64,000 bases of DNA from assembly GCA_016874935.1 (NCBI GenBank), contig VGSS01000001.1, positions 21,823-85,822 on the forward strand, in the 5' to 3' direction. Source of the DNA: Deltaproteobacteria bacterium (lineage in GTDB: Bacteria > Desulfobacterota > BSN033 > UBA1163). Position numbers and translations under genes: made by a program. Position 1 is the first letter of the stretch. The number at the start of each line of letters is the position of its first letter. Shown in pieces: positions 6,363 to 59,695 of the stretch. Under the pieces are notes generated by a model that worked only from the letters and a program-made list of their open reading frames with translations, had not been told where the DNA came from and ran no database searches.

Positions 6363-7554
6363 CCATTGCAGCCCTTTTCACCTTCATAAAATGTTTGGTG
6401 ATGACATGAAGAATGATTTCTCCTGCTTTTCCATGCCCAAACAACTCCCTTTCACCTCTAAAGGATTTTCTACTTTCAATCAGTTTCAATCCATTTAAAA
6501 TCTTTCTGGTCCCTGCCCCAATCAATATATTCCATCCGCTTTTGACCGTTTCAACCCACTCAGTTTCATCCCTTAATGTTAAACAAGGAACCTTGAACCA
6601 GTAGGCCTCTTTCTGCACGCCTCCGGAGTCGGTCAGGATGGCCCTGGCATTTTTTTCCAGGGCGATCATATTGAGGTATGAAACGGGTTTAATTAGTTTA
6701 ACCCTATGGTCATCTGGGGAAAGATCGTAGGTTTTCATCATCTTCTTGGTTCTGGGATGAAGAGGAAGGATGATAGGAGCTTTTTTTCCGATCTCATTTA
6801 GGGCTTTCAGAATGGATTTTAGCCTCTTTGGATCATCAGTGTTTTCGGCGCGGTGGAGGGTGGCTAAATAATATTGCGGATTGCGGATTGTGGATTGTGG
6901 ATTGAAAAGATCTAAATCCTTAAGAATCGTTGGCTTCTTTTCAGCTATTTTGGAGTAGTACAGAATCGAATCGAACATTACATCGCCTACGTTTTTGACA
7001 ATCTTTCCTTTCCCATTCCTGACTCCCTCTTTCAATAGATTTTGAACAGCTTGAGTGGTGGGACAGAAGAGAAAGGTGGAGAGATGGTCGGTGAGAAGGC
7101 GGTTGATCTCCTCCGGCATCCTGCGGTTATAACTCCTTAATCCAGCTTCCACATGGGCTATCGGGATATCCAGTTTGGCAGCAGCTAATGCTCCGGCCAG
7201 GGTCGAGTTGGTATCGCCGTAAACAAGAACCGCTCCTGGTTTTTCCTTTTGAAGAACGGCCTCAATTCGTTCAAGCATGATTCCGGTCTGTTTCCCATGG
7301 GACCCCGATCCTACTCCCAGATGGTAATGCGGCTGAGGAAGATCAAGTTCTTCAAAAAAGACCTTATCCATCAGGTAGTCGTAGTGCTGACCGGTGTGGA
7401 CTAAGATTTCTTGAATCTTTTTCTTCTTGTTGGATATTTGAATGGCCCGGCTGACGACAGCGGCTTTAATAAATTGTGGTCTTGCACCAATAACGGTTAC
7501 AATCTTCAAAAAGGGGAAAAAGGGGGACAGGCTACTTTTTTTATTGCTTGCCAT
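6352..7554 (-). CDS. wecB: UDP-N-acetylglucosamine 2-epimerase (non-hydrolysing), WecB/WbpI-like
   Basis: KIVTVIGARPQFIK, HTGQHYDY and GDTNSTLAGALAA motifs. The canonical MKIVTV start would be a TTG at 7507-7509. The ATG at 7552-7554 lies inside a REP palindrome, so the N-terminal residues SSLSPFFPF are REP-encoded. Confidence 0.9.
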   Translation of the reverse strand: MASNKKSSLSPFFPFLKIVTVIGARPQFIKAAVVSRAIQISNKKKKIQEILVHTGQHYDYLMDKVFFEELDLPQPHYHLGVGSGSHGKQTGIMLERIEAVLQKEKPGAVLVYGDTNSTLAGALAAAKLDIPIAHVEAGLRSYNRRMPEEINRLLTDHLSTFLFCPTTQAVQNLLKEGVRNGKGKIVKNVGDVMFDSILYYSKIAEKKPTILKDLDLFNPQSTIRNPQYYLATLHRAENTDDPKRLKSILKALNEIGKKAPIILPLHPRTKKMMKTYDLSPDDHRVKLIKPVSYLNMIALEKNARAILTDSGGVQKEAYWFKVPCLTLRDETEWVETVKSGWNILIGAGTRKILNGLKLIESRKSFRGERELFGHGKAGEIILHVITKHFMKVKRAAMDGQ

Positions 7555-8245
7555 AAATTTTCCTTGGCCTTCCAATTGGCCTAATTGTAGATTCTAATCC
7601 TAAATCTTTGCTTAATTGTAACCTCCAAGACTCATTTCCATATGGAGCCTGTCGAATTACACTTTGTCGAATTCTCTCTAATTCTTTTGCTGTAACCGGC
7701 TCGTTTACATAATCTCCCCAATCTTTAGGTAATTCTAACGGAATGGTATCAATCAAAATACGACTTCTCATTCCCAATGATTCCTGGCTTGACGACCACA
7801 ACCAGTCCTTCGCTGAGTTAACCAACCCCGCTCGCTTTGGATTTCCTTCCACGTAACGCATCACCATCAATAAATGATTGTCCTTTTGAATAAGAAAGCT
7901 CTTATAGCGCCCCTGCCAAACGTGACCTCTTGTTTCATAATGCCGATGATATCGGCGCACATGACTTGTCATTAGCCATTGCATCCATTTGCTTAAATCT
8001 TCAGCGTAATTGGGCATCAAAATTATATGAAAATGGTTTGGCATAAGACAATAAGCAAAAATCTTAACTTCATAACGGGTCTTTGCCTCTTTCACTAATT
8101 CTATAAATGCCTCATAATCTTTGTCTTTATGAAATACTATTTGGCCACCATTTCCTCGATTGATGACATGATATACTGACTCATCAACTAACCCCCTTGA
8201 AATTCTTGGCATTCAAAAAACTCCTTCAAAAAGTAGCCTGTCCCC
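7522..8245 (-). mobile_element. REP-associated tyrosine transposase unit: RAYT gene flanked by inverted REP copies (7522-7540 and 8227-8245)
   Basis: gggggacaggctacttttt at 7522-7540 and its exact reverse complement aaaaagtagcctgtccccc at 8227-8245 bracket the transposase ORF. Confidence 0.75.
7541..8212 (-). CDS. IS200/IS605-family Y1 transposase, RAYT type (REP-associated tyrosine transposase)
   Basis: YHVINRGNGGQ...AYCLMPNHFHIIL motifs (HuH plus catalytic Tyr region) typical of TnpA_IS200/RAYT. Confidence 0.85.
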   Translation of the reverse strand: MPRISRGLVDESVYHVINRGNGGQIVFHKDKDYEAFIELVKEAKTRYEVKIFAYCLMPNHFHIILMPNYAEDLSKWMQWLMTSHVRRYHRHYETRGHVWQGRYKSFLIQKDNHLLMVMRYVEGNPKRAGLVNSAKDWLWSSSQESLGMRSRILIDTIPLELPKDWGDYVNEPVTAKELERIRQSVIRQAPYGNESWRLQLSKDLGLESTIRPIGRPRKIYGKQ

Positions 8246-8255
8246 CTTTTTTTTC

Positions 8256-9989: not shown

Positions 9990-10110
9990 TTAATTAGAGT
10001 CTGTTTATAAATGCACTTTTTATGTCATGCCAGACTTGATCCGGCATCCAGACGTCGTCCCGACGAAAGTCGGGAACCATCTTAAAAGAGCTGGATTCCG
10101 GCCTTCGCCG
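9990..10110. repeat. Intergenic palindromic repeat, family R6 (tgtcat..ccggcatccagacgtcgtcccgacgaaagtcggga..ccggaatgac)
   Basis: Shares the ccagacgtcgtccc core and attccggc/gccggaat arms with copies at 51795-51950 and 57715-57790. Confidence 0.55.
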
Positions 10111-10204
10111 GAATGACGACCTTTTGAAAAATCTTTAGTTTATGGACAGACTCTAATTAAAAACATTTTGCAATGCTAATTTTGCAATGACTATTTTTCA
10201 ACGA

Positions 10205-19554: not shown

Positions 19555-19656
19555 CTTCTAAACCCCATTCCCCGCTTGTCATGCTGAACTTGTTTCAGCA
19601 TCTCATGAGACCCTGAACCGAGTTCAGGGTGACAACTTTTTAATCTTTTTGATGTC

Positions 19657-22557: not shown

Positions 22558-22615
22558 AAAAAACTATTAAATTCACCCATCGAAGTCAATACCACCAACT
22601 AAAAAAGGGGAAAAA

Positions 22616-22684
22616 GGGGACAGGCTACTTTTTGATTTTTTCTTTTGCAATTTTTCTTCACATTTAAAAAGTAGCCTGTCCCCT
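22616..22684. repeat. REP doublet (inverted pair of the same REP as at the RAYT gene)
   Basis: ggggacaggctactttt ... aaaagtagcctgtcccc. The right arm encodes the last residues KRGQATF and the stop codon of the downstream GT9 gene. Confidence 0.7.
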
Positions 22685-23740
22685 TTTTTCTGCTAAAACC
22701 TCTCTTGTTGCCTTAAAAACGTCGTCAACTGCGATTTCCTTCAGGCACTTGAGCTCTTTGCAGGAGCGGTCACGGCACGGATTACATCCTACATTTTTAA
22801 TGACTTTTTTATGAGGTCCAAATGGCCCATTGATTACTGGATCGGTCGGACCATAAATGACCACTACGGGAATTCCCATCAAGGAGGCGACATGCATTGG
22901 ACCCGTATCTCCCCCAATATAGAGATCGCAGCGCCTGTATACCTCCCCCAATTGTGTGAGGGAGATGGTGTGGGGGCCGAGCACGGAAGATTCTTTCATC
23001 CTCCTCTGAATCATCTTTACCCATTCCAGTTCACCCGGACCCCAGGTGAAGAGCACCGTTGCCTTCAGTTCATGAACAAGCTGGTCTGCCAGTTGAGCGT
23101 ATTTATCGGGCAGCCACCTTTTATAGAGTGTCTTCGGGCTGGTTCCGGGATGGATCGCAATGGAAGGGCTCTTAAGCGGAGGGAAGAGTTGATTAAAAAA
23201 AGAATTCACATACCCCCGGTCCTCAGCCGGGATAAAGAGTGGATAATCCTCAGGCTGAACCTCTAAACCCATTCCCTTCAGGAGATAAAAATTTCTCTCA
23301 AATCGACTGATCCTCTCTTTCGGAAGCTTCACTTTCTTATTCGAAAACAGGAAATTTCCTTCCTTGCTCGACCTTCGATCATATCCGATCCGTTGAGGAG
23401 AACCGGAGAGAAAAGAGAGGAGGCCGCTCTTCAGAATACCGTGAAAATCGAGGACCAGATCAAATTTCTTCCTCCGGAGGGATTGAATAAATGTTCGAAC
23501 CTCTCCGATCGTCCTCCACCCTTTAAGAGCCCTGATTCCTTCGGACCACCTTTGTCTTGGAAAGAGGATAACCTCTTCAACTTCCGGCTGGCTTTCTACA
23601 AGGGCTTTCGAGGTTTCTTCAACAATCCAGGTGATGGAGGCGGATGGGAAGTTTTTCTTTATAGCCTTTACCGCAGGAAGCGTTCGGATCACATCCCCCA
23701 CGGCGCTTAGCCTCAAAACTAAAATTTTCTGATTATCCAT
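22664..23740 (-). CDS. ADP-heptose:LPS heptosyltransferase (GT9; WaaC/WaaF-like)
   Basis: KILVLRLSAVGDVIRTLPA and GDTGPMHVASLMGIPVVVIYG motifs. Probable start at MDNQKIL. Confidence 0.8.
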   Translation of the reverse strand: MDNQKILVLRLSAVGDVIRTLPAVKAIKKNFPSASITWIVEETSKALVESQPEVEEVILFPRQRWSEGIRALKGWRTIGEVRTFIQSLRRKKFDLVLDFHGILKSGLLSFLSGSPQRIGYDRRSSKEGNFLFSNKKVKLPKERISRFERNFYLLKGMGLEVQPEDYPLFIPAEDRGYVNSFFNQLFPPLKSPSIAIHPGTSPKTLYKRWLPDKYAQLADQLVHELKATVLFTWGPGELEWVKMIQRRMKESSVLGPHTISLTQLGEVYRRCDLYIGGDTGPMHVASLMGIPVVVIYGPTDPVINGPFGPHKKVIKNVGCNPCRDRSCKELKCLKEIAVDDVFKATREVLAEKRGQATF

Positions 23741-24365: not shown

Positions 24366-24392
24366 TTATAAACTGATTACTGATCACTGATT
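24366..24392. repeat. Heptanucleotide tandem repeat ACTGATY, about 3.5 copies
   Basis: actgatt actgatc actgatt actg, upstream of the thioesterase start. The same unit recurs at 51989-52035. Confidence 0.6.
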
Positions 24393-24448
24393 ACTGTCTC
24401 TTCTTTATAGTTTCCCTATCTCCCCATTACCCCATCTCCCCATACTTC

Positions 24449-29602: not shown

Positions 29603-29814
29603 GGCATCACTCTATTTTTTAACCTATCAGAAAGATTGAAGGATTGTCAACCCTTCGGTTCCTGTCGGCCAAAGATCGGAAGGCTTACTCAGGGTTGACC
29701 CTGAGCGCAATTTCATCTCTCTCACCTTCGTCTTTCCTATGTTGAGCAGGATTTCGATTTTGTCGAAGGGGCAAGAATTGACAAGCATTTTATGAATATG
29801 ATAACCTTTTTTTA

Positions 29815-35394: not shown

Positions 35395-35548
35395 TCCCCT
35401 GCGGTGGAAACTGTGTCGTAATAGGGGAAACTAAAAAAATGTCATGCCGAACTTGTTTCGGCATCTAATCATTCCAAGAACTTACGAGACCCTGAAACAA
35501 GTTCAGGGTGACAAATTAGTAATTACGACACAGTCTCGTGGGGAGAGG
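35395..35548. repeat. MITE-like palindromic element, family R2, copy a
   Basis: Terminal inverted repeats ggaaactgtgtcgtaatagggg / agtaattacgacacagtctcgtgggg. Internal hairpins tgtcatgccgaacttgtttcggcatc and gaccctgaaacaagttcagggtgaca. Confidence 0.7.
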
Positions 35549-35569
35549 GAGGACGATGAGGAACGCCAG

Positions 35570-35971
35570 ATGAAATTCGTATCCGATGGAGGCTGTTTTG
35601 TGTGCGGCGAAAAGAATCCGCACGGATTAAAAATTAAGTTTCAGGTCGACCGGGATAAACAGAACATCCACACCACCTTCACTGTTGAGCCAACCTATCA
35701 GGGCTGGGATGGAATCGTTCACGGAGGAATCATCTGCACCCTCTTAGATGAGGCTATGGCCAATCTGGTTTATGAATTGGGCATGAATGCAATTGCGGCG
35801 TCCCTGGAGGTCAGATTCAAAAAACCGGCTCCAACCCTTCAACCTCTTATGGTCTATGGAGAAATCACGGAGGTGCATAAGAAATTGGTTAAGGCAAAGG
35901 CAAGCGTCACGAGGGAGGATGGAACGGTATTGGCCACGGGAATCTCCACCTTTGTCAGGCAGAGTCCGTAA
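35570..35971 (+). CDS. PaaI/4HBT-family hotdog thioesterase
   Basis: GIVHGGIICTLLDEAMA motif. True start at MKFVSDGG. The ORF-track N-terminal extension is read through repeat R2-a. Confidence 0.75.
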   Translation: MKFVSDGGCFVCGEKNPHGLKIKFQVDRDKQNIHTTFTVEPTYQGWDGIVHGGIICTLLDEAMANLVYELGMNAIAASLEVRFKKPAPTLQPLMVYGEITEVHKKLVKAKASVTREDGTVLATGISTFVRQSP

Positions 35972-35976
35972 AAACT

Positions 35977-36819
35977 TTATCCTGGTTGAAGAACCTTCAA
36001 AAAATTCAATCCTAAAATTTTTTTGCGATCCTCAATGGAAAGACCTGATTCCTCCAGTTCCTGAAAATATCTCGGAGGCCGAACCAGTGGAAAGTCCGAT
36101 CCGAAAATAATCTTCTCCGCGCCCACGATCTCGCTCACAATTCGATAGATCCTCTTCGAGTAAAGGAAGGGAGAGGCGGCTGTATCGTAATAGACATTCG
36201 CCATTGCCTTCTTCACCTCAGGCATTAACTCATAGAAGGGGAGCCCTCCTCCCCAGTGAGCCAGTAGAATCGGAAGAGATGGAAAGGTGAGGGCGAACTG
36301 GTAGAAAACCTCCAGAGGAGTTCCTCCTTTGCCGGGATAGGAATGACCGAGATGCTCATTGGCATGGAGAAGGATGGGAATCTTCTGATTCTCCATCTCT
36401 TGAAAAATCGGCCTCATCGATTCAATATCCTGAGCGGTCATCTCTCGATCGTAGAAAGCGATCTCTCCCACTCCCTTTGCTCCATTCTTTATCCTTCGAT
36501 CCAGTTCCATGGCAGACCATTCCGGATCTGAAAAGAGAAGAAGAATGAAAACGATCAACCGATGGGGATAGCGCGAGGCAGAATCAATCAGGTATTGATT
36601 ATGAAGAGCGCAGAGCTCTTTTTCTTCCCAGGGAAAACCGCAGATCACGGACTGCTCGATCCCGGCCTCATCCATTGAGGCAATCAACTCCTCTGCTCCG
36701 ACGAGCCTGGCTTTGGGATTTTTATAAACGGAAGAAAACCCTCTGTCCCTTAAACAGAAGGCCTCCCTATTCTTTTTCACCTCGTCAGGAAAGATATGGG
36801 TATGACAGTCGACGATCAT
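35977..36819 (-). CDS. Amidohydrolase-family (TIM-barrel metal-dependent hydrolase) protein
   Basis: N-terminal IVDCHTHIF metal-binding motif. Confidence 0.7.
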   Translation of the reverse strand: MIVDCHTHIFPDEVKKNREAFCLRDRGFSSVYKNPKARLVGAEELIASMDEAGIEQSVICGFPWEEKELCALHNQYLIDSASRYPHRLIVFILLLFSDPEWSAMELDRRIKNGAKGVGEIAFYDREMTAQDIESMRPIFQEMENQKIPILLHANEHLGHSYPGKGGTPLEVFYQFALTFPSLPILLAHWGGGLPFYELMPEVKKAMANVYYDTAASPFLYSKRIYRIVSEIVGAEKIIFGSDFPLVRPPRYFQELEESGLSIEDRKKILGLNFLKVLQPG

Positions 36820-36899
36820 GGCCTGCCCTTCCTCACTTTAGTCCCTTATGAATGAAATTGTGCGCGAAATGGTAACAAAGTTATTTTAGATTGAGCGGA

Positions 36900-37065
36900 T
36901 TTTAAATCCGAAGCACGAAATCCGAAATTCGAAACAATCTCAAATGACCAAATTTCAAATGTTCAAAATAGATAAAAGTTTAAGAAATTTGAATTTTGAA
37001 AATTCGAATTTGTTTCGGATTTCGATATTCGGATTTCGAATTTTATCAACCCCCAAAGCCTGTTT
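36900..37065. repeat. AT-rich palindromic element, family R3, copy 1 (cgaaatccgaaa ... ttcggatttcg arms)
   Basis: Arms cacgaaatccgaaattcgaaac and gtttcggatttcgatattcggatttcg flank an AT-rich spacer. A near-identical element is at 58285-58415. Confidence 0.65.
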
Positions 37066-37083
37066 GGTTCCGGCTATGCCGGG

Positions 37084-37653
37084 TTAGGGTTTCCCTTTGG
37101 TAAAACCATAATGGCCGAGGGGTTTCCCGAGGTTCCAGTATTCCCGCGCCCCCGGGCAGTAGGCCAGTGGAAGGGCTTTCAGGATATCGATCCGGCCCCT
37201 TTCCTTCTGCACTTCCTCTTTCACATGGAGGGCAACGATCTCGCCGAGAAAAAAATCGTGGCTTCCGAGAGAGATGATCTGTTTGACTTCACACTCCATT
37301 TGAACCGGACATTCGTCGATCAATGGGGCCTTCACCTTCTCCGCTGGAACAGCTTTCCATCCCGTCAGATCAAATTTATTCGTCTCTCTTCCTGAGACCA
37401 CCCCGCAGGCATCAACCCCTCTGACCATCTCCTCCGAGGGAAGATTAACCACAAATTCCCCAATCCCTTTGATGCATTGATGCGAATATCGTTCCGGCCT
37501 GATTGAAATGCCGATCATGGGAGGTTCGGAATTGACCACTCCTGCCCAGGCCAGCGTGATGATATTGGGTTTTTCTTTTCCATCCACGCAGGTGACCAAG
37601 ACGACCGGTGTTGGAAAGAGTAAGGTCGTAGGTGGAAGGCTCTTTCGTCCCAT
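37084..37653 (-). CDS. Flavin reductase-like (FMN-binding split-barrel) protein
   Basis: LLFPTPVVLVTCVDG...NIITLAWAGVV...PPMIGISIRP pattern. Confidence 0.75.
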   Translation of the reverse strand: MGRKSLPPTTLLFPTPVVLVTCVDGKEKPNIITLAWAGVVNSEPPMIGISIRPERYSHQCIKGIGEFVVNLPSEEMVRGVDACGVVSGRETNKFDLTGWKAVPAEKVKAPLIDECPVQMECEVKQIISLGSHDFFLGEIVALHVKEEVQKERGRIDILKALPLAYCPGAREYWNLGKPLGHYGFTKGKP

Positions 37654-37681
37654 TCCTCTCCTCCCTCAGGGTACCCGCCTT

Positions 37682-38290
37682 CTATAGAAAAAGGCTCACA
37701 TCCCCCTTCCCTTTTCTGATGACTTTGGGGAATTCATCGGTGAGATCAATGATGCTCGAATGCTCCGCAACGATCGCTCCGCCGTCGATGACGAGATCGA
37801 GCTGCTTGACAAAGTGTTCTTCAATTTCAGAGGGATCGTTGTAAAGGCTTTCGTCAGGCTTATAGACGCTAGTGCTGATGATCGGATGCCCCAATTCCCG
37901 TACAAGGCTGAGACAGATTTTATTGTCGGGGATGCGAATGCCGACTGTATTTTGCTTCGTCATGGCAATCTTGGGGACAAATTTGGTTGCGGTCAAAACA
38001 AAGGTATAGGGCCCTGGAAGCAGCCTTTTCATCATCTTGTAGGCATAATTGGAAACATGGGCATAGCGGCTGATGTCCTTTAGGTCGGAGCAGATGAAAC
38101 TGAGCGGTTTCTTCGCCTCCATCTTCTTCAATCGATGAATCTTCCGGATTGCTTCCTGGTTGAAGAGATCACAACCCAAACCATAGACCGTGTCGGTGGG
38201 ATACCCGATGATTCCTCCCTGTTCCAGTGCTTCAATCACCTTCCGGACCAGCCTCAACTGCGGATTTTTAGGATTGATGGCAAGGATCAT
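37682..38290 (-). CDS. tsaC: L-threonylcarbamoyladenylate synthase (TsaC/YrdC family)
   Basis: GGIIGYPTDTVYGLGCD motif. Start at MILAINPK. Confidence 0.8.
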   Translation of the reverse strand: MILAINPKNPQLRLVRKVIEALEQGGIIGYPTDTVYGLGCDLFNQEAIRKIHRLKKMEAKKPLSFICSDLKDISRYAHVSNYAYKMMKRLLPGPYTFVLTATKFVPKIAMTKQNTVGIRIPDNKICLSLVRELGHPIISTSVYKPDESLYNDPSEIEEHFVKQLDLVIDGGAIVAEHSSIIDLTDEFPKVIRKGKGDVSLFL

Positions 38291-38294
38291 AATC

Positions 38295-39212
38295 TCAACT
38301 CTCCCTCTCCAGTTCGATGATGCGCACCCCATTGATGAACCGCTGGTTAAAATAAGGGGTGTCCAGACGGTCCACCCTCACTTCTTTGCCTCGGTAGGAG
38401 GCGTGGACGAATTCATTGTTGCCGATATAGATTCCCACATGCGAACCATTCGCCCGGCGTGTCTTGAAGAAGACGATATCGCCCTCCTCCAACTCTTCTC
38501 TCCCAACTTTTTTACCGATGTGCAACTGCTCCCGGGCGGTTCTGGGGAGCTGAACATTAAAAATTCCAAAGATCTTTTTCACGAAGGCGGAACAATCCAG
38601 TCCCTTGAGTGTGGAACCGCCCAGCCGGTAAGGAACTCCTAAAAAGGTTTTAACCACTCTTACGAAGAGACTCCTCTCATCGGGGTCTCTCCATTTTCCC
38701 AGAGGCTCCGGGATCGTTTGATTCTCGCCCTGGGCTTGCTGGTTCTCTTTAACCTCCTCCGCATCACCGGGCTCCTCTACCTCTTCTGTTCTCGTGTCCC
38801 CCTGTTTCAGCAGGATGAGTCGTTGGCCTGTCTTGAGGCCGTCCGTCCGGAGCTGGTTTAACCTCTTGATCTCCTCAACTGAAAGGCCCGCCCTTTTCGA
38901 AATCGTATAGAGACTGTCTCCCTGTTTCACAATGTAGGGTTCCGTTTCGGACGAAACTTTCTGGGCTGTCTTCCCGGCCGGTCTCTTTTTCGGATTCGGG
39001 ATGAGGAGAACCTGTTTCGGTTTGAGATGACTTCCGTCCAGCCCGTTCGCCTTTTTTAAAGCTTCAACAGAGATACCATACGATCTCGAAATCATGTAAA
39101 GAGAATCACCGGATTTGACTGTGTAATGCTCTTCGGTCGATCCATTGTGAGGGCAGGCCAACACGAACAGGACGACCAGCATCACCCCCGAAAAGCCTAA
39201 CCGTCCCACCAT
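38295..39212 (-). CDS. Secreted LysM-LysM-NlpC/P60 (C40) peptidoglycan peptidase
   Basis: Two LysM modules (YTVKSGDSLYMIS.., YIVKQGDSLYTIS..) and a C-terminal NlpC/P60 domain with the catalytic Cys in GLDCSAFV. Confidence 0.85.
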   Translation of the reverse strand: MVGRLGFSGVMLVVLFVLACPHNGSTEEHYTVKSGDSLYMISRSYGISVEALKKANGLDGSHLKPKQVLLIPNPKKRPAGKTAQKVSSETEPYIVKQGDSLYTISKRAGLSVEEIKRLNQLRTDGLKTGQRLILLKQGDTRTEEVEEPGDAEEVKENQQAQGENQTIPEPLGKWRDPDERSLFVRVVKTFLGVPYRLGGSTLKGLDCSAFVKKIFGIFNVQLPRTAREQLHIGKKVGREELEEGDIVFFKTRRANGSHVGIYIGNNEFVHASYRGKEVRVDRLDTPYFNQRFINGVRIIELERES

Positions 39213-39262
39213 AAATCCCCCCCTTTCCTGTTGATAGACATCACTTCCCTGTTGAAGATATG

Positions 39263-39347
39263 GGAATTCACCCCGTTAGAAATAATGCCCCGCTCGGCTT
39301 CGAGTCCCGCTATAGCGGGACTGGAATTTCTAACGGGGTAAATCGAA
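39263..39347. promoter_or_regulatory. Nested palindrome: outer 13-bp inverted repeat ccccgttagaaat/atttctaacgggg enclosing a perfect 18-bp palindrome gtcccgctatagcgggac
   Basis: Read directly from the sequence. It lies between the anti-sigma 3' end and the NlpC/P60 5' end. Candidate terminator or operator. Confidence 0.4.
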
Positions 39348-39417
39348 AAGGATCAGATTGGATGAGTAGATAATGCTATTTTATACAAGGATTGTTTCGA
39401 TAAGTCAACCAGATTGA

Positions 39418-40374
39418 TCACTCCAGGACGAGGCGAATGCGGATGAAAAGCGTACCTTCTTTAAGGCCCGCTGATTTCGAAGGTTCTTTTCCCTTCTCTT
39501 CAACCTCCTTGCTCTTTGCTCCCGCGACAAGGTTTAAATCATCCTTCATCTCTTTTTGAACGGTGGCTCTGGGGGCCCAAGGAGGGAACCTGACCTGGGC
39601 CAATTCTTTTTCAAACTCCGCATAGGAAGAGGTAGGCAAAGAGGTCAGGAGGACATCTCCATCTTCTCTGACCACTTCTCCTCCCAATTGTTTTGCCAAC
39701 TCCTGAAGCCGGGAGACAGCTTTCTTCCGATCACTGATTTTCAGGGTAATTTCCCTGTCTGGCTTTTTAGCAAGAGACATCATGGCTGTTCCAGCCTTCT
39801 CGCTCTCTCTCCTCTTCTCTTCCACGGGAGGGGCTTCTGCTTTTGCCATCTCTTCTTTGAGCGAAGGAGCAGGCGGATGGATCTTCTTCTCATCGGCCAC
39901 AGAAGATTTTGTCTCTGCCCTATATTTCTCAGGATAGATAGCGAGAGGAGGCGGAGAAATGGACTCTACCTCTTTCTTTTGGACCTCTGATTGCGGAACC
40001 TCAGGTTTTTCAACAGCCCTCTTCTGAAGCATCTCAAAGGGCGTCATTTTCGTAAGATAAAGGGCTAAAAAAACGATCATCACCATGGCCGCAGCCTGGA
40101 TAGGGATCTTCATGGAACGGAAGAACCGTTCCCCTCCCCGCCTTCCTTTCCCCTTTCGTTCCTCCCGTTTCTTCTGTATCTCTGAGACAAATCCTTTGGG
40201 CACATCCTCTTCTTCGATTGTGTGAAGCCAGTGGATCATCCGGTTGAACTGTTCCCACTCTTTTTGACAATCCTGGCAGGAACCAAGATGTTCTCTGAGC
40301 CTCTCCTCTTCCGACGGCTTCAATCCCCCTTCAAGGAAGGAGGAGAATTGGTCGCGCACCTTATCGCAATCCAT
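39418..40374 (-). CDS. Anti-sigma factor (N-terminal zf-HC2 zinc-finger, TM helix, Pro/Glu/Lys-rich periplasmic region)
   Basis: MDCDKVRDQFSSFLEGGL...HLGSCQDCQKEW zinc-binding motif. GAAGGAG ribosome-binding site 7 nt before the ATG at 40374. It is directly downstream of the ECF sigma gene. Confidence 0.75.
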   Translation of the reverse strand: MDCDKVRDQFSSFLEGGLKPSEEERLREHLGSCQDCQKEWEQFNRMIHWLHTIEEEDVPKGFVSEIQKKREERKGKGRRGGERFFRSMKIPIQAAAMVMIVFLALYLTKMTPFEMLQKRAVEKPEVPQSEVQKKEVESISPPPLAIYPEKYRAETKSSVADEKKIHPPAPSLKEEMAKAEAPPVEEKRRESEKAGTAMMSLAKKPDREITLKISDRKKAVSRLQELAKQLGGEVVREDGDVLLTSLPTSSYAEFEKELAQVRFPPWAPRATVQKEMKDDLNLVAGAKSKEVEEKGKEPSKSAGLKEGTLFIRIRLVLE

Positions 40375-40391
40375 CGACTTTGCTCCTTCAA

Positions 40392-40982
40392 TCAATGAAC
40401 GGATCTCTCCAAAATCCCTTTCAGGTCCATTCTGGCCCTGTGAAGTCTTGACTTGATCGTCCCTTCAGGAAGAGAAAGCAGCTTCCCTATCTCTTCATAT
40501 GAGTACCCCTGGAGGTCCCTTAATACGATCATCTCTCTCTGATCCTCCTTCAATTTTAACAGCCCCTTCTGGACAAACTCCCGGATCATCTTTTTTTCGA
40601 AGAGGGTTTCCGGATTACCGGAAGGATCATAGACCGGCCTTTCCATCTCTCCATCCTCTGTTCCGATGGGATCGTTCAACGAGTCCGTTTTGAAATAGTG
40701 TCTTCGCTTCAAATATTTCCAGCGGTTTCGGCAATGGTTCAAGGTCATCTGCGTCAGCCAGGGCTCAAATTTGACCTCTTCCCTCAAATCCTTAATCGAC
40801 TCCAGGACGGAGAGAAAGACCTCCTGGGACAACTCCTTCGCCTCCTCCCTGTTCCCCAACATCCGAAAGGCGATATTAAAAACCTTCTTCTGGTAAGCGA
40901 GGACGATCTCCGCAAAAGCGCTCTCGTCTCCTGCCTTACAATTCTCAATCACCTCTTTCTGAACCTTCGGAGAACGCTCCAT
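40392..40982 (-). CDS. ECF-subfamily RNA polymerase sigma-70 factor
   Basis: Region 2 (…FEPWLTQMTLNHCRNRWKYLKRR…) and region 4 (…SYEEIGKLLSLPEGTIKSRLHRAR…). Confidence 0.85.
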   Translation of the reverse strand: MERSPKVQKEVIENCKAGDESAFAEIVLAYQKKVFNIAFRMLGNREEAKELSQEVFLSVLESIKDLREEVKFEPWLTQMTLNHCRNRWKYLKRRHYFKTDSLNDPIGTEDGEMERPVYDPSGNPETLFEKKMIREFVQKGLLKLKEDQREMIVLRDLQGYSYEEIGKLLSLPEGTIKSRLHRARMDLKGILERSVH

Positions 40983-41077
40983 TAAAAATCCGTATGTCCC
41001 CTTTTATATAGACAACGAAAGGATGGATAAAGTTCCGGGAAAATTCCCCAAGAAAATATATTCGACTAATTATTTCC

Positions 41078-41262
41078 TCCCCCCTTGAGACTGTGTCGTA
41101 AAGGGAAAAACAGAGAAAAATGTCACGCTGAACCTTGTGCTGAACTTAATTCAGTATTGTTTCAGCATCTAATAGAATCCAATACTTACGAGACCCTGAA
41201 ATAAATTCAGGGTGACCAAATAATAATTACGACACAGTCCCCTTGTGGGGGGGATTAAGGTG
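41078..41262. repeat. MITE-like palindromic element, family R2, copy b (with an extra nested hairpin module)
   Basis: Terminal inverted repeats cccccttgagactgtgtcgtaa / attacgacacagtccccttgtggggg. Internal gctgaac/gttcagc and gaccctgaaataaattcagggtgac hairpins. Confidence 0.7.
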
Positions 41263-41272
41263 GGGGGATGAA

Positions 41273-42220
41273 TCAGAACCTTTCCTCTTTTAAAAATTTT
41301 AGCAGTTTGATCAACTTCTGGTCCCGCTCTTTCAAAACATCTGCAATATTCTTCGAGGTATAGTCATAAAACCCTCTTCCTGACTTGACTCCGAAATATC
41401 CTTTCTTCACCAACTGGCTCAGGGTTTTAGGACTTCTCTCTTTTGAGACCAGATGGATGGACGGGTTTCTCTCAAAGGCGAGGGCCAGATCCAGCCCGGT
41501 ATAGTCATAGCGTTGAACCACTCCAACGACAGGGATTCTGATTCCGAGACTGCCCTTCACTGCCCTGTCGATCTCCTCCGCTGTGGCATATCCTCCATCC
41601 AGGAGGAAGAAGATCTCCCTTGCCATGGCCCTCTGAAGGCGATTGACAATATATCCAGGAATGAACTTCTTCATCACGACCGGCGTCTTACCCAATTTCA
41701 GGAAGATTTCTTTCACTCTTTTGATTGTCACCTCGGATGTCTTAGGCCCCCTGACCAGATCGACCAGAGGGATGAGGTGGGGCGGAGCATACCAGTGGCA
41801 GATCAACATCTTTTCGGGACGGATTTTTTTTGTCAGCCGAAAGATATTGAGATAGGAAGTATTGCTGGTGAAGATCGTCCGCTCAGGGCAGAGGCGATTC
41901 AGGGTCTGAAAAAGTTCTTTCTTCGCTTTCGGATTTTCGGATATTGCCTCAACAACCAGGTCAGCCTTCTGCGCCACATCGAGGGAAGTGGAGGGATGGA
42001 TTCGACCCAAAATCTTTGGAATCGATCTCGCCTCGATCATCTTCGCATTTTTCAGAGTCCGAAGATTGGCTTGAATCAGCTTGAGACTTTTTCCGAGAAT
42101 GTCGTCATGAACATCCACCAGATCGACTTCATACCCGCCCTGTGCAAAAACCAGTCCAATCGAGTGGCCCATGGTCCCCGCACCGACAACCAACACCCTT
42201 CTGATCCGATCAATAGTCAT
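41273..42220 (-). CDS. 3-hydroxyacyl-CoA / 3-hydroxybutyryl-CoA dehydrogenase family protein
   Basis: VLVVGAGTMGHSIGLVFAQGGYEV NAD-binding motif and the C-terminal 3HCDH domain pattern. Confidence 0.8.
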   Translation of the reverse strand: MTIDRIRRVLVVGAGTMGHSIGLVFAQGGYEVDLVDVHDDILGKSLKLIQANLRTLKNAKMIEARSIPKILGRIHPSTSLDVAQKADLVVEAISENPKAKKELFQTLNRLCPERTIFTSNTSYLNIFRLTKKIRPEKMLICHWYAPPHLIPLVDLVRGPKTSEVTIKRVKEIFLKLGKTPVVMKKFIPGYIVNRLQRAMAREIFFLLDGGYATAEEIDRAVKGSLGIRIPVVGVVQRYDYTGLDLALAFERNPSIHLVSKERSPKTLSQLVKKGYFGVKSGRGFYDYTSKNIADVLKERDQKLIKLLKFLKEERF

Positions 42221-42224
42221 TACT

Positions 42225-42400
42225 TAGAAAATAAAAGTCTAACGGTAAAGGTAACGATACCCGTTTCGTTAATAAAAGGCTACGTTTATCGTAATTTAAT
42301 TCTTTACACGTAACCGTAACCGGAAGTCGATGCGGGCCTCCTAACCCTAACCGTGACCTACGGACCATTTTCATGGTTCGTGAGTGGCCTAACGGCCATG
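42225..42400. repeat. Intergenic repeat family R4, copy b; begins immediately upstream of the 3-HADH start codon
   Basis: aaaataaaagtctaacggtaaaggtaacgatacccgtttcgttaataaaaggctacgtttatcgtaat..cgtaaccgtaaccgg; near-identical to 59540-59695. Confidence 0.65.
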
Positions 42401-42543
42401 TGCAATTACTTTCCCCATTATGTTTCTCTCAAATACTAACCAAAGATATCTGAAATATCCCCTCACCCCCTCCTTCTCCCCTGGAGGGCATATGCGCTAA
42501 CTTTGCTCTCCCCCCTCTTTCAAGGGAAGGAACTTACTTAACT

Positions 42544-42698
42544 CCTCCCCCTTCAGAGACTGTGTCGTAATAAGGGAATTGATAAAAATGTCATCCTGAA
42601 CTTGTTTCAGGATCTAATTAATTCAACCAATTGCGAGACCCTGAAATAAATTCAGGGTGACAAAATAGTAATTACGACACAGCCTCTCAAGGGGGAGG
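42544..42698. repeat. MITE-like palindromic element, family R2, copy c
   Basis: Terminal inverted repeats ccccttcagagactgtgtcgtaata / tagtaattacgacacagcctctcaaggggg. Hairpins tgtcatcctgaacttgtttcaggatc and gaccctgaaataaattcagggtgaca. Confidence 0.75.
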
Positions 42699-42750
42699 TT
42701 GGGAGGGGGATGGGATTGCAGCTCCTGAACTACCAACCAAATCTTCTCCC

Positions 42751-43086
42751 TTACCGATTCCATCTCCTGCAAAATTTCGTTGTTCCAGAATCGGAGAACG
42801 CGAAAACCAGCCGCCTGTAGTTTTTGTGTACGATTCTCATCATATACTGCCCGCTGTCCATGTTGCCCCCATCCACCTCAATGACCATTCTGTTTTCCAG
42901 GCAGACAAAATCGAGGATGTAATCACCAAATGGATGCTGACGGCGAAATTTCAAACCGGAAATCTGACGACCTCGCAGAAGATGCCACAAAACCTTTTCC
43001 GCGTCAGACATGTTGCTACGTAACACCCGCTGTAGTTTGCCCGAAGGTATCTTCTTGTTTGTCTGGCCGATCACAATCTCCCCCAT
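42751..43086 (-). pseudogene. DUF559 (Vsr/PD-(D/E)xK-like endonuclease-domain) gene, with an apparent -1 frameshift in a homopolymer
   Basis: N-terminal part ...AEKVLWHLLRGRQISGLKFRRQHPFGDYILDFVCLENRMVIEVDGG is in frame. The conserved continuation QHGQRAVYDENRTQKLQAAGFRVLRFWNNEILQEMESV is in the adjacent frame. The switch is at the C5 run at 42866-42870 (G5 on the coding strand; G6 would restore the frame). Confidence 0.65.
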
Positions 43087-43099
43087 CCCCTCCCCACTC

Positions 43100-43275
43100 C
43101 TCCCCTTGAAGAGACTGTGTCGTGATTACTATTTTGTCATCCTGAACTTGGTTCAGGATCTCGTAACTATTTAATTCTATTAGATGCCGAAACAATACTG
43201 AATTAAGTTCAGCACAAGGTTCGGCATGACAATTTTTATAATTTCCCCTATTACGACACAGCCTTGAAGGGGAGG
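43100..43275. repeat. MITE-like palindromic element, family R2, copy d
   Basis: Terminal inverted repeats ccccttgaagagactgtgtcgt / acgacacagccttgaagggg. Internal tgtcatcctgaacttggttcaggatc plus gccgaa/ttcggc hairpins. Confidence 0.7.
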
Positions 43276-43285
43276 GAATATTAAG

Positions 43286-43852
43286 TTAGCGCTTAAGCCC
43301 CAGTGGGGAGAGGGGGCCAAAGATCTTTAAATACTTCTTCGCCTTCTCATAAGCCTCAACCCACTGTTCTCTGGACCGCCTCATCGCCTCCTCGTCCAGT
43401 TGCTTGACAACCTTGCCCGGAATCCCGAGAACGAGCGACCCTTCGGGAACCTTCATCCCAGGAGGCACAACACTTCCGCTCCCGATGACCGAATTCTTCC
43501 CCACCTCTGCTCCGTCCAGCACAATGGCTCCGATTCCAACAACCGCCCCTTCCCTGACAATACATCCGTGGAGGATGACCCCGTGACTGATCAATACGTC
43601 CCGCTCAATGATGACTGGCCGGCCCGTCGGAGACTCGATCAAAACTTTATCGAGAATGACTGAACGCTCTCCCACAACGATTCGATCGCTATCCGCCCTC
43701 AAAAGCGCAAAGGGCCAGATGCTCACCTCTTTCTTTAGGATGATCTCTCCGATCAGCCTCGCCGAGGGATCGATGAATACGGTTTCATCAAATTGGGGAG
43801 ATTTTCCTTCAAAAGGAGTGATTGGATCAAAGTTGATTAAATGGGATGACAT
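43286..43852 (-). CDS. Gamma-carbonic-anhydrase-family / hexapeptide-repeat protein (PaaY/YrdA-like)
   Basis: Left-handed beta-helix hexapeptide repeats with the His ligand pattern (…VLISHGVILHGCIV…). Confidence 0.75.
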   Translation of the reverse strand: MSSHLINFDPITPFEGKSPQFDETVFIDPSARLIGEIILKKEVSIWPFALLRADSDRIVVGERSVILDKVLIESPTGRPVIIERDVLISHGVILHGCIVREGAVVGIGAIVLDGAEVGKNSVIGSGSVVPPGMKVPEGSLVLGIPGKVVKQLDEEAMRRSREQWVEAYEKAKKYLKIFGPLSPLGLKR

Positions 43853-48057: not shown

Positions 48058-48282
48058 TGCCAGCCTCCTTTATCTTGGATTGGATGTCCATCCAATAACA
48101 ATAAATTGCCCTTCATGTCAAGAAGTTTCAAAGAGATTTCTAAAAAGAAGAAATCTCTGATTACACCGATTAGAATTCGATTGCACAGATTAGAAATGCA
48201 TGGATGACAATCTTGTAAAAAGTCCCAATCTGTCACCCTGAACTTGTTTCAGGGTCTCTGTTTTATATAGCTCTCTCAATGT

Positions 48283-51794: not shown

Positions 51795-51950
51795 GAGTAT
51801 TGTCATTCCCGCCCCGATTTCCATCGGGTAAACTCCAGCGGGAATCCAGACGTCGTCCCTGCGGAAGCAGGGATCTATGACAAAGAAACTGGGTTCCTGT
51901 TTGCACAGGAAACCCTGGATTCCGGATCAAGTCCGGAATGACAAACCGGT
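51795..51950. repeat. Intergenic palindromic repeat, family R6
   Basis: tgtcattcccgc...gcgggaatccagacgtcgtccctgcggaagcagggatc ... ggattccggatcaagtccggaatgaca. Confidence 0.6.
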
Positions 51951-51988: not shown

Positions 51989-52035
51989 TGACAAATTACT
52001 GATCACTGATTACTGACTACTGATCACTGATTATT
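51989..52035. repeat. Heptanucleotide tandem repeat ACTGAYY, 5 copies
   Basis: actgatc actgatt actgact actgatc actgatt; lies between the TAXI-2 stop and the DUF1850 start. Confidence 0.65.
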
Positions 52036-58278: not shown

Positions 58279-58284
58279 ATTCTA

Positions 58285-58415
58285 ATTTCGAAGCACGAAA
58301 TCCGAAACAAGCACGAATATTCAAAATACCAATTTCCAAACAGATTAAAGTTTAGAATTTTGAAATTCGAATTTCGGATTTGTTTCGAATTTCGATATTC
58401 GGATTTCGGATTTTT
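58285..58415. repeat. AT-rich palindromic element, family R3, copy 2 (between convergent genes)
   Basis: tcgaagcacgaaatccgaaac ... gaaattcgaatttcggatttgtttcgaatttcgatattcggatttcggatttttt; homologous to 36900-37065. Confidence 0.65.
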
Positions 58416-58417
58416 TC

Positions 58418-59539: not shown

Positions 59540-59695
59540 CCCAGAAAATAAAAGTCTAATGGTAAGGGTAACGAGGCCCGTATCGTTAATAGAAGGTTAC
59601 GTTTATCGTCTCTTAATTCTTTATACGTTGCCGTAACCGGTAACCGAAACGGGCTTCGTAACCGTAACCCATTTTCTAACCATTTAACCTTTCCT
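59540..59695. repeat. Intergenic repeat family R4, copy c; begins immediately upstream of the PFK start codon
   Basis: aaaataaaagtctaatggtaagggtaacgaggcccgtatcgttaatagaaggttacgtttatcgtc...ccgtaaccggtaaccg. Confidence 0.65.

Follow-up and report, generated by a model that had tools for sequence, protein, structure and literature searches.

The window analysed here, a stretch of 64,000 nucleotides (64 kb) from a Deltaproteobacteria bacterium, harbors four full copies of a small repeat called R2 within 8 kb, as the original prediction had it, although their limits, taken from terminal inverted repeat (TIR) to TIR, are corrected to 35407-35537, 41087-41241, 42556-42686 and 43111-43265. Aligned over their whole length, with copy 4 reverse-complemented, the copies show a mean column identity of 77%, and all four are bordered by a perfect 3-bp target-site duplication (TSD). 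Only spurious ORFs read through them, and R2 is without coding capacity. Copy 1 (131 bp, + strand; sequence read directly, alignment and folding) is placed between the divergent genes of an inositol monophosphatase and a 4HBT thioesterase; its left TIR (GAAACTGTGTCGTAAT, 35407-35422) and right TIR (ATTACGACACAGTCTC, 35522-35537) are flanked by the TSD GTG (35404-35406 and 35538-35540). The spurious N-terminal extension proposed for this 4HBT/PaaI-like thioesterase is indeed supplied by copy 1, the public call being 175 aa long with the Pfam domain in its last 133 aa. Copy 2 (155 bp, + strand; alignment and folding) is a long form, in which the loop of module A holds an additional nested hairpin of 23 nt; its TSD is CTT (41084-41086 and 41242-41244) and the stems of its host hairpin are TCCCCC (41078-41083) and GGGGGA (41249-41254).

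Copies 3 and 4 occupy the two terminal hairpins of a cassette built around a DUF559 gene (42716-43086, - strand, Vsr-fold nuclease, Pfam DUF559 E = 6.4e-40). Copy 3 (131 bp, + strand; alignment and folding) has the TSD TCA (42553-42555 and 42687-42689) and lies in the loop of the hairpin CCTCCCCCT (42544-42552) / AGGGGGAGG (42690-42698) on the 3' side of the gene, whereas copy 4 (155 bp, long form, - strand, inverted with respect to copies 1-3) has the TSD GAA (43108-43110 and 43266-43268) and lies in the loop of CCTCCCC (43099-43105) / GGGGAGG (43269-43275) on the 5' side. The gene is further bracketed by a G-box (TGGGAGGGGGATGGG) and a C-box (CCCATCCCCTCCCCA), and it is frameshifted near 42866, where one base is missing with respect to orthologues. 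An N-terminal extension by read-through of R2 had also been attributed to DUF559; the frameshifted gene does not bear this out, and its frame would exit through copy 3, on the C-terminal side. The whole cassette is bounded by a second TIR family called R3, with a left arm (GGGCATATGCGCTAACTT, 42486-42503, + strand) and a right arm (AAGTTAGCGCTTAAGCCC, 43283-43300, + strand), likewise in the loci L042, L122, L126 and L133.

Elsewhere in the window, two of three sites formerly listed as isolated R2-type modules stand, namely a doublet lacking TIRs (19577-19634, + strand; TGTCATGCTGAACTTGTTTCAGCATC, tcat, GAGACCCTGAACCGAGTTCAGGGTGACA) and a single hairpin module (48231-48258, + strand; TGTCACCCTGAACTTGTTTCAGGGTCTC), whereas 29680-29710 is an unrelated small hairpin. 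A RAYT-like Y1 transposase gene is located at 7544-8212 (Pfam Y1_Tnp E = 1e-16; 77.8 bits against NCBIfam REP_Tyr_transpos, for which the cut-off is 80).

Hairpin modules and folding of the R2 interior

The R2 interior is variable and comprises two REP-like hairpin modules (A and B), which are inverted copies and are kept as local hairpins. Their stems are Watson-Crick at 98/98 and 97/98 positions with compensated variants, and the conserved structure is this pair of local hairpins instead of the one long palindrome formerly ascribed to each copy. Between subfamilies the interior is replaced wholesale and the TIR alone is retained. Enterobacterial BIMEs and pneumococcal BOX elements are mosaic, modular repeats, and R2 resembles them as an assembly of hairpin units of variable number; unlike them, a fixed TIR encloses its modules and the whole unit carries transposition footprints. 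The small dispersed repeats (SDR) of Nostoc, reportedly nested in one another, are also very small hairpin repeats inside other repeats, although they differ in taxa and in sequence; they are not known to have a conserved TIR plus TSD.

The perfect local hairpins, their compensated stem variants and the inverted doublet of REP-like units recall REPINs, and R2 might be an element of that type moved as single-stranded DNA by a RAYT, for example the Y1 transposase of the window, which is single-copy and flanked by repeats. This reading is very improbable: the gene is flanked by another inverted repeat of 24 nt (AAAAAGGGGGACAGGCTACTTTTT) and not by R2 or GTCAT modules, the part conserved across phyla is the TIR and not the hairpins, R2 is without the GTAG-type 5' tetranucleotide, and it has TIRs and a 3-bp TSD, whereas Y1/HUH transposition is not known to leave a target duplication.

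R2 folds strongly (z-scores of -3.9 to -12.5 with respect to shuffled sequence), as would a selected RNA or DNA structure (terminator, attenuator, sRNA or protein-binding cruciform) that is not mobile. A terminator-like score was found where module A is followed by a T-run, on one strand and in copies 1 and 3 only, and copy 2 directly follows a gene in that orientation; what speaks for a terminator is a hairpin plus T-run on one strand of one subfamily. On the other hand, copy 1 lies between divergent gene starts, terminator-like sites are no commoner in the region than in its shuffles, and the would-be structured interior is the very part that is swapped between subfamilies. No Rfam family was matched at gathering thresholds (the best sub-threshold matches, to generic long-hairpin miRNA models, reached 28 bits versus the 230 needed), and nothing supports the dedicated structured-RNA role once suggested. 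Insertion is shown by the TSDs, by the empty sites and by the identical copies found at loci unrelated to each other (see below), and together with this evidence these results make a purely structural, immobile R2 very hard to credit; the structure may nonetheless have acquired a secondary, exapted role.

The 23-nt hairpin nested in module A of copies 2 and 4 resembles a partial self-duplication of a module arm, and nested palindromes of this kind might have arisen where they stand, through replication slippage or template switching at hairpins and with no transposition. That may yet be true of the small nested hairpins. For the whole element it is contradicted, and extremely unlikely, for such growth can neither place one 16-bp TIR in hairpins that are unrelated and come from eight phyla nor yield 3-bp duplications that are site-specific and differ in sequence.

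Ends, target-site duplications and host hairpins of R2

The terminal inverted repeats stood up to closer analysis. The R2 TIR is 16 bp long (GAGACTGTGTCGTAAT / ATTACGACACAGYCTC), and the 14-mer GACTGTGTCGTAAT has nine matches in the window at ≤2 mismatches (0.07 expected), eight of which are the eight R2 arms with at most one mismatch each. Just outside the 12-nt core used for searching, four further positions are 80-96% conserved among 113 copies (G98, A109, G109 and A90, the right side mirroring this profile), and in diverged copies both arms have changed together (e.g., GAGACTGTGTCACAAT with ATTGTGACACA). The outer C-run (left) and G-run (right), formerly read as the ends of the element, are the stems of a host hairpin and are separated from the TIR by the 3-bp TSD.

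An exact 3-bp direct repeat flanks 72 of 112 copies, compared to 3.6 on average in permutations (at most 12); inverted 3-bp matches (4/112) are not enriched, and direct repeats of 2, 4 or 5 bp show enrichment nowhere near that of 3 bp. The other 40 copies are without an exact TSD, which may reflect decay or small variations of the ends, and the TSD sequences show a weak T-N-R bias only. Perfect host stems (≥5 bp, no more than 4 nt from the TSD) were found in 72/112 copies versus 3.65% of random positions, with the TSD centred in the loop (27 of 47 exactly symmetric, (1,1) and (0,0) being commonest). The same hairpins are found empty: sister contigs are without copy 2, one of them (L001) carrying no more than CCCCCC-tttgctaaa-GGGGGG there, the hairpin of copy 3 has the empty orthologues CCTCCCCC-TTGAA-GGGGGAGG (L122, L123, L124 and L126), and that of copy 4 is TCCCTCCCC-TTCAA-GGGGAGGG in orthologous DUF559 cassettes. 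R2 inserts at the dyad of pre-existing palindromes, that is, at hairpin centres.

The hosts are C-run/G-run hairpins in 44/112 copies, a type also present at the ends of DUF559 cassettes, and the commonest host type is a G/C-rich "triplex motif" (TMECO); GTCAT-type and other hairpins also serve. TMECO was described as a G/C-rich intrastrand triplex motif (Holder et al., 2015; PMC4666352) and has also been read as a G-quadruplex-hairpin motif (bioRxiv 10.1101/032615), and neither source mentions DUF559 or loop insertions. Its form, CCCTCTCCC-loop-GGGAGAGGG-TTA-GGGTGAGGG, is close to that of the hairpin which hosts many R2 copies and flanks the DUF559 gene of the window, with the difference that TMECO is the target and not the element.

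Spread of R2 and its proposed mobilising enzyme

Confinement of R2 to the window had been named as the observation that would count against the original prediction; at least 114 further loci were found in a genome scan, so this objection falls. The roughly 46 assemblies that hold them bear the labels of eight phyla (Thermodesulfobacteriota, including records titled Deltaproteobacteria, Planctomycetota, Nitrospinota, Ignavibacteriota (isolate), Bacteroidota, Gammaproteobacteria, Bdellovibrionota and Binatia), these assignments being MAG labels except for a Rosettibacter isolate. The scan demanded an interior of 95-125 nt between the TIRs, and any cargo-bearing copies would therefore have escaped it by design; it captured copies of 129-156 bp from TIR to TIR, and five extra copies of 141, 165, 204, 220 and 317 bp were found in the fetched loci. 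A single MAG supplies at least about 15 loci. One Syntrophaceae MAG holds, at different loci, six copies that are 100% identical and have different TSDs (TGG, TCA, CGA, TAA, AAA and CAA), and four identical copies are found in two Planctomycetota MAGs, one of Ca. Scalindua sediminis and the other a Planctomycetota bin recovered at the same site. R2 has spread recently in multiple copies, and it occurs across phyla.

No DDE transposase is present among the gene calls covering approximately 2-61 kb of the window, no transposase lies beside any R2 copy, and no protein family recurs next to R2. TIR pairs more than 320 bp apart were absent from about 1 Mb of fetched loci, and no autonomous element with R2 TIRs was detected in the window, the 114 R2 loci, 80 DUF559 loci or viral contigs. 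Since no such transposase was found in this part of the window or around the copies, R2 appears to be non-autonomous and mobilised in trans. The TIR, the excess of TSDs, the identical copies and the empty sites lead to the same reading, of which the core, a non-autonomous MITE-like element mobilised in trans, was already put forward in the original prediction: R2 elements are, with good confidence, non-coding MITE-like DNA transposons mobilised in trans, inserting at palindrome dyads with a 3-nt stagger, and they apparently form an undescribed family of miniature transposable elements.

In the proposed mechanism, an enzyme encoded elsewhere in the genome would move R2 units (mostly about 130-155 bp, occasionally longer) by recognizing the 16-bp TIR. 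For integration, the two strands would be cut 3 nt apart at the dyad axis, where a potential hairpin has its loop; once the stagger is repaired, the 3-bp direct duplication would remain, and the palindrome arms (C-run on the left, G-run on the right) would be left flanking the element. The preferred hosts are triplex-motif hairpins of the form CCCTCTCCC-loop-GGGAGAGGG(-GGGTGAGGG), and GTCAT-type hairpins are also used. The interior modules are drawn from several interchangeable families, each a perfect local hairpin, sometimes with smaller hairpins nested in the loops.

We infer that the enzyme is a DDE-type transposase acting as a symmetric dimer. R2 shows GAG termini and a 3-bp duplication (profiled over 113 and 112 copies, respectively), and the IS1031 group of the IS5 family, which has the same duplication length and terminal trinucleotide, would fit. 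The duplications known for the IS1031 group are TNA, unlike those of R2, and among the loci analysed no IS of this group carried R2 TIRs. Insertion itself may have a mechanistic precedent, by analogy, in the loop-specific IS1397 and ISKpn1 (IS3 family), which reportedly enter palindromic units (REP/BIME) at their loops and duplicate 3-4 bp there. R2 likewise enters repeated extragenic hairpins at the loop and leaves a short duplication; it differs in accepting several unrelated hairpin families and in being geneless with GAGA...TCTC ends, whereas IS1397 and ISKpn1 are full-length IS with their own transposase and TG...CA ends.

Similar to bacterial MITEs (Correia/NEMIS of Neisseria, ERIC, Nezha and MITEAba12), R2 is small, non-coding, multi-copy and intergenic, with terminal inverted repeats, a target-site duplication and mobilisation in trans. 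Unlike them, it targets a palindrome dyad instead of a short sequence, its TIR is common to several phyla, its interior is exchanged among hairpin-module families, and it has no known parent IS. Of 1.4 million MITEs that a census grouped at 95% identity, 97-98% were restricted to one genus (PMC11602168); the comparison is loose because the census measures the clustering of whole elements and not TIR sharing.

DUF559 cassettes and the significance of R2

Hairpins of the TMECO type bracket DUF559 genes as inverted repeats in 55/76 loci versus 0/491 controls, and the R3 pair encloses DUF559 in seven loci and also exists as a geneless 209-nt form. These observations, the C-run/G-run hosts of R2 and the position of copies 3 and 4 could be accommodated if R2 hitch-hiked on DUF559: a homodimer would cut palindrome dyads with a 3-nt stagger, first of all in the hairpins on either side of its own gene, and R2 or R3 DNA would be captured at the breaks. 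A homing endonuclease is known within the Vsr/DUF559 clade. This explanation is nevertheless unlikely, since DUF559 is found within 8 kb of R2 in only 2/114 loci and never between R2 TIRs, GTCAT-type and other hairpins are also hosts, a nuclease alone explains neither end recognition nor joining, DUF559 has no known biochemical activity (its closest solved structure, 3HRL, carries no annotation), and the copy in the window is frameshifted.

On a broader and rather doubtful reading, TMECO hairpins and DUF559 genes would form a pair similar to REP/RAYT. The cassette of about 420-620 bp (hairpin and G-box, DUF559, C-box and hairpin) would be the gene-bearing form from which geneless inverted doublets and solo hairpins derive, and a DUF559 dimer would cut hairpin dyads with a 3-nt stagger, the cuts being used by R2 and R3 as nested parasites. 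If true, a guild of palindrome-in-palindrome elements would be driven by a Vsr-fold nuclease and not by a classical transposase.

The analysis of R2 led to recognising the enigmatic "triplex/G-quadruplex" repeats, abundant in E. coli and in numerous other bacteria, as the inverted ends of DUF559 nuclease cassettes, and what DUF559 does and where these repeats come from become one testable question. R2 also accounts for spurious ORF extensions that public protein sets already contain, among them the 175-aa thioesterase and the "VITTQSL..." peptides. Returning to the trans-mobilised transposon, a dyad-specific 3-nt cut might find use in genome engineering if the mobilising enzyme were found. R2 is a clear case of a bacterial miniature element that targets the shape or symmetry of DNA, the centre of a palindrome, and not a short sequence, and its 16-bp end has persisted, through exchange of the hairpin cargo, in genomes that bear the labels of eight phyla.

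Anatomy of the R2 copies in the window

The four copies of the repeat family R2 that the original prediction had recognized were found by direct reading of the sequence at 35407-35537, 41087-41241, 42556-42686 and 43111-43265 (copies 1 to 4). Their alignment, with copy 4 turned to its reverse complement, covers the full length at a mean column identity of 77%. The 14-mer GACTGTGTCGTAAT, common to the copies, has nine matches in the window at up to two mismatches compared to 0.07 expected, and eight of these are the eight R2 arms, each with at most one mismatch. An assembly artefact can be dismissed for copy 1, which recurs unchanged in four independent JGI assemblies of the uncultured "Deltaproteobacteria bacterium" MAG population to which the window belongs.

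R2 is polar and consists of a left terminal inverted repeat (TIR-L), an A-rich leader, a first hairpin unit (module A, TGTCATSCYGAAC-TTG-TTTCRGSATC), a spacer, a second unit of the same type in inverted orientation (module B, GAGACCCTGAAAYAARTTCAGGGTGACA), a short linker and TIR-R. In copies 2 and 4 the loop of module A contains a further hairpin of 23 nt (41133-41155, and the equivalent position of 43111-43265); it looks like a part-duplicated module arm with TTG on either side and may have originated by mini-insertion or template switching. Each copy folds far better than its dinucleotide shuffles (z-scores of -4.9 and -3.9 as DNA, -10.3 and -12.5 as RNA). The single long palindrome initially described was replaced by a different structure: in 14 distinct R2 copies whose two sides both bear a GTCA-NNNYGAW-type module, Watson-Crick pairs fill 98/98 and 97/98 positions of the local stems, with four compensated stem variants, and the arms of modules A and B are never identical to each other (70/98), which indicates that two local hairpins are maintained.

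Across the family only the TIR is constant. The interiors fall into at least five classes, each an inverted pair of hairpin modules (GTCAYCCTGAAC...; GTCATTCTGAACGAAGTGAAGAATC...; TTCCGTTCATGGTTCGAG...CACGAACGGA with GCCGTTCGTCCTGAGC...GAAGGGCGAATGGC; GTCATTGCGAG...; GTCATTCCG...GGAATCCAG), and some module loops hold nested extra hairpins of about 20 nt. The claim of isolated modules stood in part, with R2-type modules devoid of TIR at 19577-19634 and 48231-48258. A related hairpin type is present as REPIN-like inverted doublets, also TIR-less, at 10023-10120 and 51915-51943 (GTCATGCCAGACTTGATCCGGCATCCAG ... CTGGATTCCGGCCTTCGCCGGAATGAC). In Sphingomonadaceae plasmids the inner hairpins GTCATCCTGAACTTGTTTCAGGATC and GACCCTGAAACAAGTTCAGGGTGAC form an inverted doublet with 96% identity (Sphingomonas koreensis plasmid NZ_CP018821.1, locus L202 1500-1632), and Treponema and Sulfurovum have the module singly. 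BLAST against plasmids matched the inner modules, in Sphingomonadaceae and other plasmids, and did not match the R2 TIR. The inner hairpins are a separate and very widespread REP-like class that is carried by R2 and whose range extends far beyond the R2 hosts.

Identity among the R2 copies of the window is only 70-87%, whereas copies of a Syntrophorhabdus MAG match copy 1 at 95% identity and copies of the Deltaproteobacteria MAG VGRY01 (isolate K_DeepCast_100m_mx_276) match copy 3 at 93.5%. The contigs of the latter MAG bear JGI identifiers (Ga0194127) adjoining those of the window-bearing assemblies, and both sets of samples presumably come from Lake Tanganyika. Low identity inside the window and high identity outside it suggest that the window copies are old members of several subfamilies and not the product of a recent burst.

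The possibility that R2 acts as a structured RNA or a terminator was also considered. No Rfam family matched R2 at gathering thresholds, and below them the hits were confined to miRNA models of the generic long-hairpin kind (28 bits vs 230). On one strand of copies 1 and 3, module A and the T-run after it resemble a terminator; the terminator-like sites of the region are no more numerous than in its shuffles, however, and divergent genes start on either side of copy 1. At most, R2 may have taken on an exapted role. Regarding annotation, the suspected spurious extension of the thioesterase was borne out by a public call of 175 aa (35444-35971) that begins inside copy 1; the 4HBT thioesterase ORF that holds the domain has its probable start at 35570. 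Protein databases are thus contaminated by peptides derived from R2.

Other repeats were observed in the window. One of about 125 nt lies at 42226-42352 and 59543-59669 (direct, 83% identity) and, inverted, at 2303-2370; it has no match in Rfam and its copies are just upstream of minus-strand genes for 3-hydroxyacyl-CoA dehydrogenase, phosphofructokinase and polysaccharide deacetylase. AT-rich repeats of GAATTTCGAATTTCGGATTT-like units form inverted pairs at 36899-37047 and 58279-58417, and recA of a Syntrophorhabdus MAG lies between the arms of a similar inverted repeat (L037 2125-3305). Short ATTACTGATCACTGATTACTG repeats are present at 24376-24399 and 51995-52032, the second being two overlapping copies with a 14-nt offset.

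Termini, target sites and movement

A scan of one genome per species with the pattern CTGTGTCGTRAW-N(95-125)-ATYACGACACAG, whose interior length places cargo-bearing copies outside its reach, returned at least 114 R2 loci, in about 46 assemblies among the matches listed; R2 is therefore not confined to the window. Conservation extends four bases beyond the searched core (G in 98, A in 109, G in 109 and A in 90 of 113) and is mirrored on the right side, so that the TIR comprises 16 bp (GAGACTGTGTCGTAAT / ATTACGACACAGYCTC). An exact 3-bp direct repeat immediately outside the TIR was found in 72 of 112 non-redundant copies (permutation mean 3.6, maximum 12). Repeats of 2, 4 or 5 bp showed no comparable enrichment, and a reverse-complement relation between the flanking triplets was not enriched (4/112). 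All four window copies possess a perfect 3-bp target-site duplication (TSD; GTG, CTT, TCA and GAA), whose sequence is variable across R2 with a weak T-N-R bias.

Outside the TSD, the left flank is C-rich, the right flank is G-rich and the two pair with each other; 72 of 112 copies are enclosed by a perfectly paired stem (>=5 bp, no more than 4 nt from the TSD) compared to 3.65% of random positions. The duplicated triplet is central in the host loop, as judged in the 47 copies with both exact TSD and stem, where the unpaired bases to the left and right of the TSD include (1,1) in 14 copies, (0,0) in six, (3,3) in four, (2,2) in two and (4,4) in one. The commonest host hairpin is CCCTCTCCCC-loop-GGGGAGAGGG, frequently with outer CCCTCACCCC / GGGGTGAGGG boxes; other hosts are GTCAT-type hairpins and, in Scalindua, GCCCGCC...GGCGGGC. 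Since the flanks beyond the TSD pair and the TSD is central in the loop, the GGGG...CCCC ends originally attributed to R2 are the arms of the host hairpin, split by the insertion.

Uninterrupted hairpins were found at four loci (L122, L123, L124 and L126) that hold cassettes of the nuclease gene DUF559 80-85% identical to the one hosting copies 3 and 4 in the window. Their empty sites read TCCCTCCCC-TTCAA-GGGGAGGG at the place of copy 4 and CCTCCCCC-TTGAA-GGGGGAGG at that of copy 3. The filled site of copy 3 reads, on the gene strand, CCCCC-T[TGA]-R2-[TGA]A-GGGGG, i.e., of the five loop nucleotides the middle three are duplicated. At the place of copy 2, the sister contig L001 has only CCCCCC-tttgctaaa-GGGGGG.

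The sister contigs L001 and L207 bear a bare module doublet in place of the DUF559 cassette and were usable only in part as clean cassette empty sites, 41045-43397 (2.35 kb) being a divergent and not a same-haplotype segment: identity to the window is 98.5-99.9% on both sides and about 87% across it. In these two loci the segment is without R2 copy 2, the repeat D3 and the entire cassette. It looks like a recombination import with its left boundary about 30 nt from the host hairpin of copy 2.

One Syntrophaceae MAG holds six copies of 100% identity at six loci, and every copy has a perfect TSD of its own. Other sets of two to four identical copies lie mostly inside single MAGs, with more sets in several Thermodesulfobacteriota MAGs; one set of four is common to two Planctomycetota MAGs that come from one site, Ca. 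Scalindua sediminis and a Planctomycetota bin. There are signs of recent activity of R2 in some genomes.

Candidates for the mobilizing enzyme

R2 has no coding capacity. Among the gene calls checked (about 2-61 kb of the window) there is no DDE transposase, and the sole transposase-like gene is a Y1 protein resembling REP-associated tyrosine transposases (RAYT) at 7544-8212 on the minus strand (223 aa; Pfam Y1_Tnp E = 1e-16; NCBIfam REP-associated tyrosine transposase 77.8 bits, cut-off 80). It resides inside a polysaccharide-biosynthesis cluster, within a perfect 24-nt inverted repeat (AAAAAGGGGGACAGGCTACTTTTT, 7517-8251) that differs from R2. HUH/Y1 transposition leaves no target duplication, which argues against RAYT as the mobilizer of an element with a 3-bp TSD. 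A geneless pair of the same AAAAAGGGGGACAGGCTACTTTTT arms lies at 22611-22690.

No protein family recurs within 1.5 kb of R2 across the at least 114 loci, the top cluster being spurious ORFs through R2 itself. Long TIR pairs were absent from about 1 Mb of fetched DNA (longest element 317 bp), and the 'solo' TIR arms inspected as a sign of an autonomous copy turned out to be diverged short pairs. A de novo search of all loci for IS-like ORFs with flanking inverted repeats found nothing with R2 ends; it retrieved the RAYT-like gene, an unrelated DDE IS and recA between AT-rich repeats. Viral contigs gave three matches, each a solitary arm in apparent coding sequence with no second arm.

A stagger fixed at 3 bp and centered on the dyad is consistent with an enzyme that acts as a symmetric dimer. 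In the IS5 family, the IS1031 group generates a 3-bp duplication and has GAG... termini, and R2 is alike in both features. The IS3-family elements IS1397 and ISKpn1 insert specifically in loops with 3-4-bp duplications, and R2 resembles them in loop insertion with a short duplication.

The DUF559 cassette and the breadth of R2

Copies 3 and 4 occupy the loops of the two hairpins of the DUF559 cassette, whose motif is CCCTCTCCC-loop-GGGAGAGGG-TTA-GGGTGAGGG. The same motif was published as a G/C-rich intrastrand "triplex motif" called TMECO, with 23 copies in E. coli K-12, presence in >260 genomes and a link to genome instability (PMC4666352); a second paper reads it alternatively as a G-quadruplex-hairpin motif, and DUF559 is absent from both. 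In the window the DUF559 gene is frameshifted (Pfam E = 6.4e-40) and bracketed as [hairpin]-G-box ... C-box-[hairpin]. Of 581 confirmed DUF559 matches from metagenome contigs 80 loci were kept, and inverted TMECO-type repeats (score >=15) tightly bracket 55 of 76 DUF559 genes of these metagenomic loci compared to 0 of 491 control pseudo-genes positioned within those loci. The outermost boundary is a second TIR family, R3 (GGGCATATGCGCTAACTT / AAGTTAGCGCTTAAGCCC, 42486-42503 and 43283-43300; GGGCATAKGCGCTAACTT in the clade of the window), which encloses DUF559 in L042, L122, L126 and L133, with its right arm in L130 and L131; a geneless R3 form of 209 nt was found in L005 (7495-7703).

In E. 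coli K-12 (1351100-1351860, L204), a hairpin abuts the stop codon of the DUF559 gene ycjD, and TMECO no. 9 lies 170 nt 3' of ycjD with a duplicated ycjD 3' fragment between. Presence or absence of ycjD was rejected as a clean empty site, a different gene following fabI in Nissle 1917 (one strain). Five inverted doublets without a gene, with spacers of 16-59 nt, are listed in the published TMECO table (PMC4666352), and such doublets are the cassette arrangement minus its gene. The association of TMECO and DUF559 resembles the REP-RAYT system. The Vsr/DUF559 clade contains a known homing endonuclease, and the closest solved structure (3HRL) is annotated without function. As a general R2 transposase DUF559 was rejected: it is found within 8 kb of R2 in 2 of 114 listed loci and never inside R2, so the bracketing does not establish it as the mover of R2.

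Most of the R2 assemblies listed are Thermodesulfobacteriota (Syntrophaceae, Smithella, Syntrophorhabdus and Desulfobacteraceae); the others are labelled as Planctomycetota (Ca. Scalindua, Pirellulales), Nitrospinota, Ignavibacteriota (isolate Rosettibacter primus) and Ca. Binatia, with one MAG each labelled as Flavobacteria, Gammaproteobacteria and Bdellovibrio-like. Occurrence in genomes labelled as eight phyla is an unusual breadth; published clusters of bacterial MITEs, in which whole elements were grouped at 95% identity, are nearly all genus-specific (PMC11602168).

The TIR, the TSD, the insertion at dyads, the empty sites and the copies elsewhere uphold the initial reading of a MITE-like, non-autonomous element. 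R2 is a real MITE-like family with a 16-bp TIR, a 3-bp TSD, insertion at palindrome dyads and interchangeable hairpin cargo; it is apparently undescribed, no paper carrying its TIR sequence having been found in the literature search, in which the papers on DUF559 proved not to be relevant. Among the by-products, the one of greatest interest is how tightly DUF559 genes are bracketed by the triplex-motif hairpins parasitized by R2.
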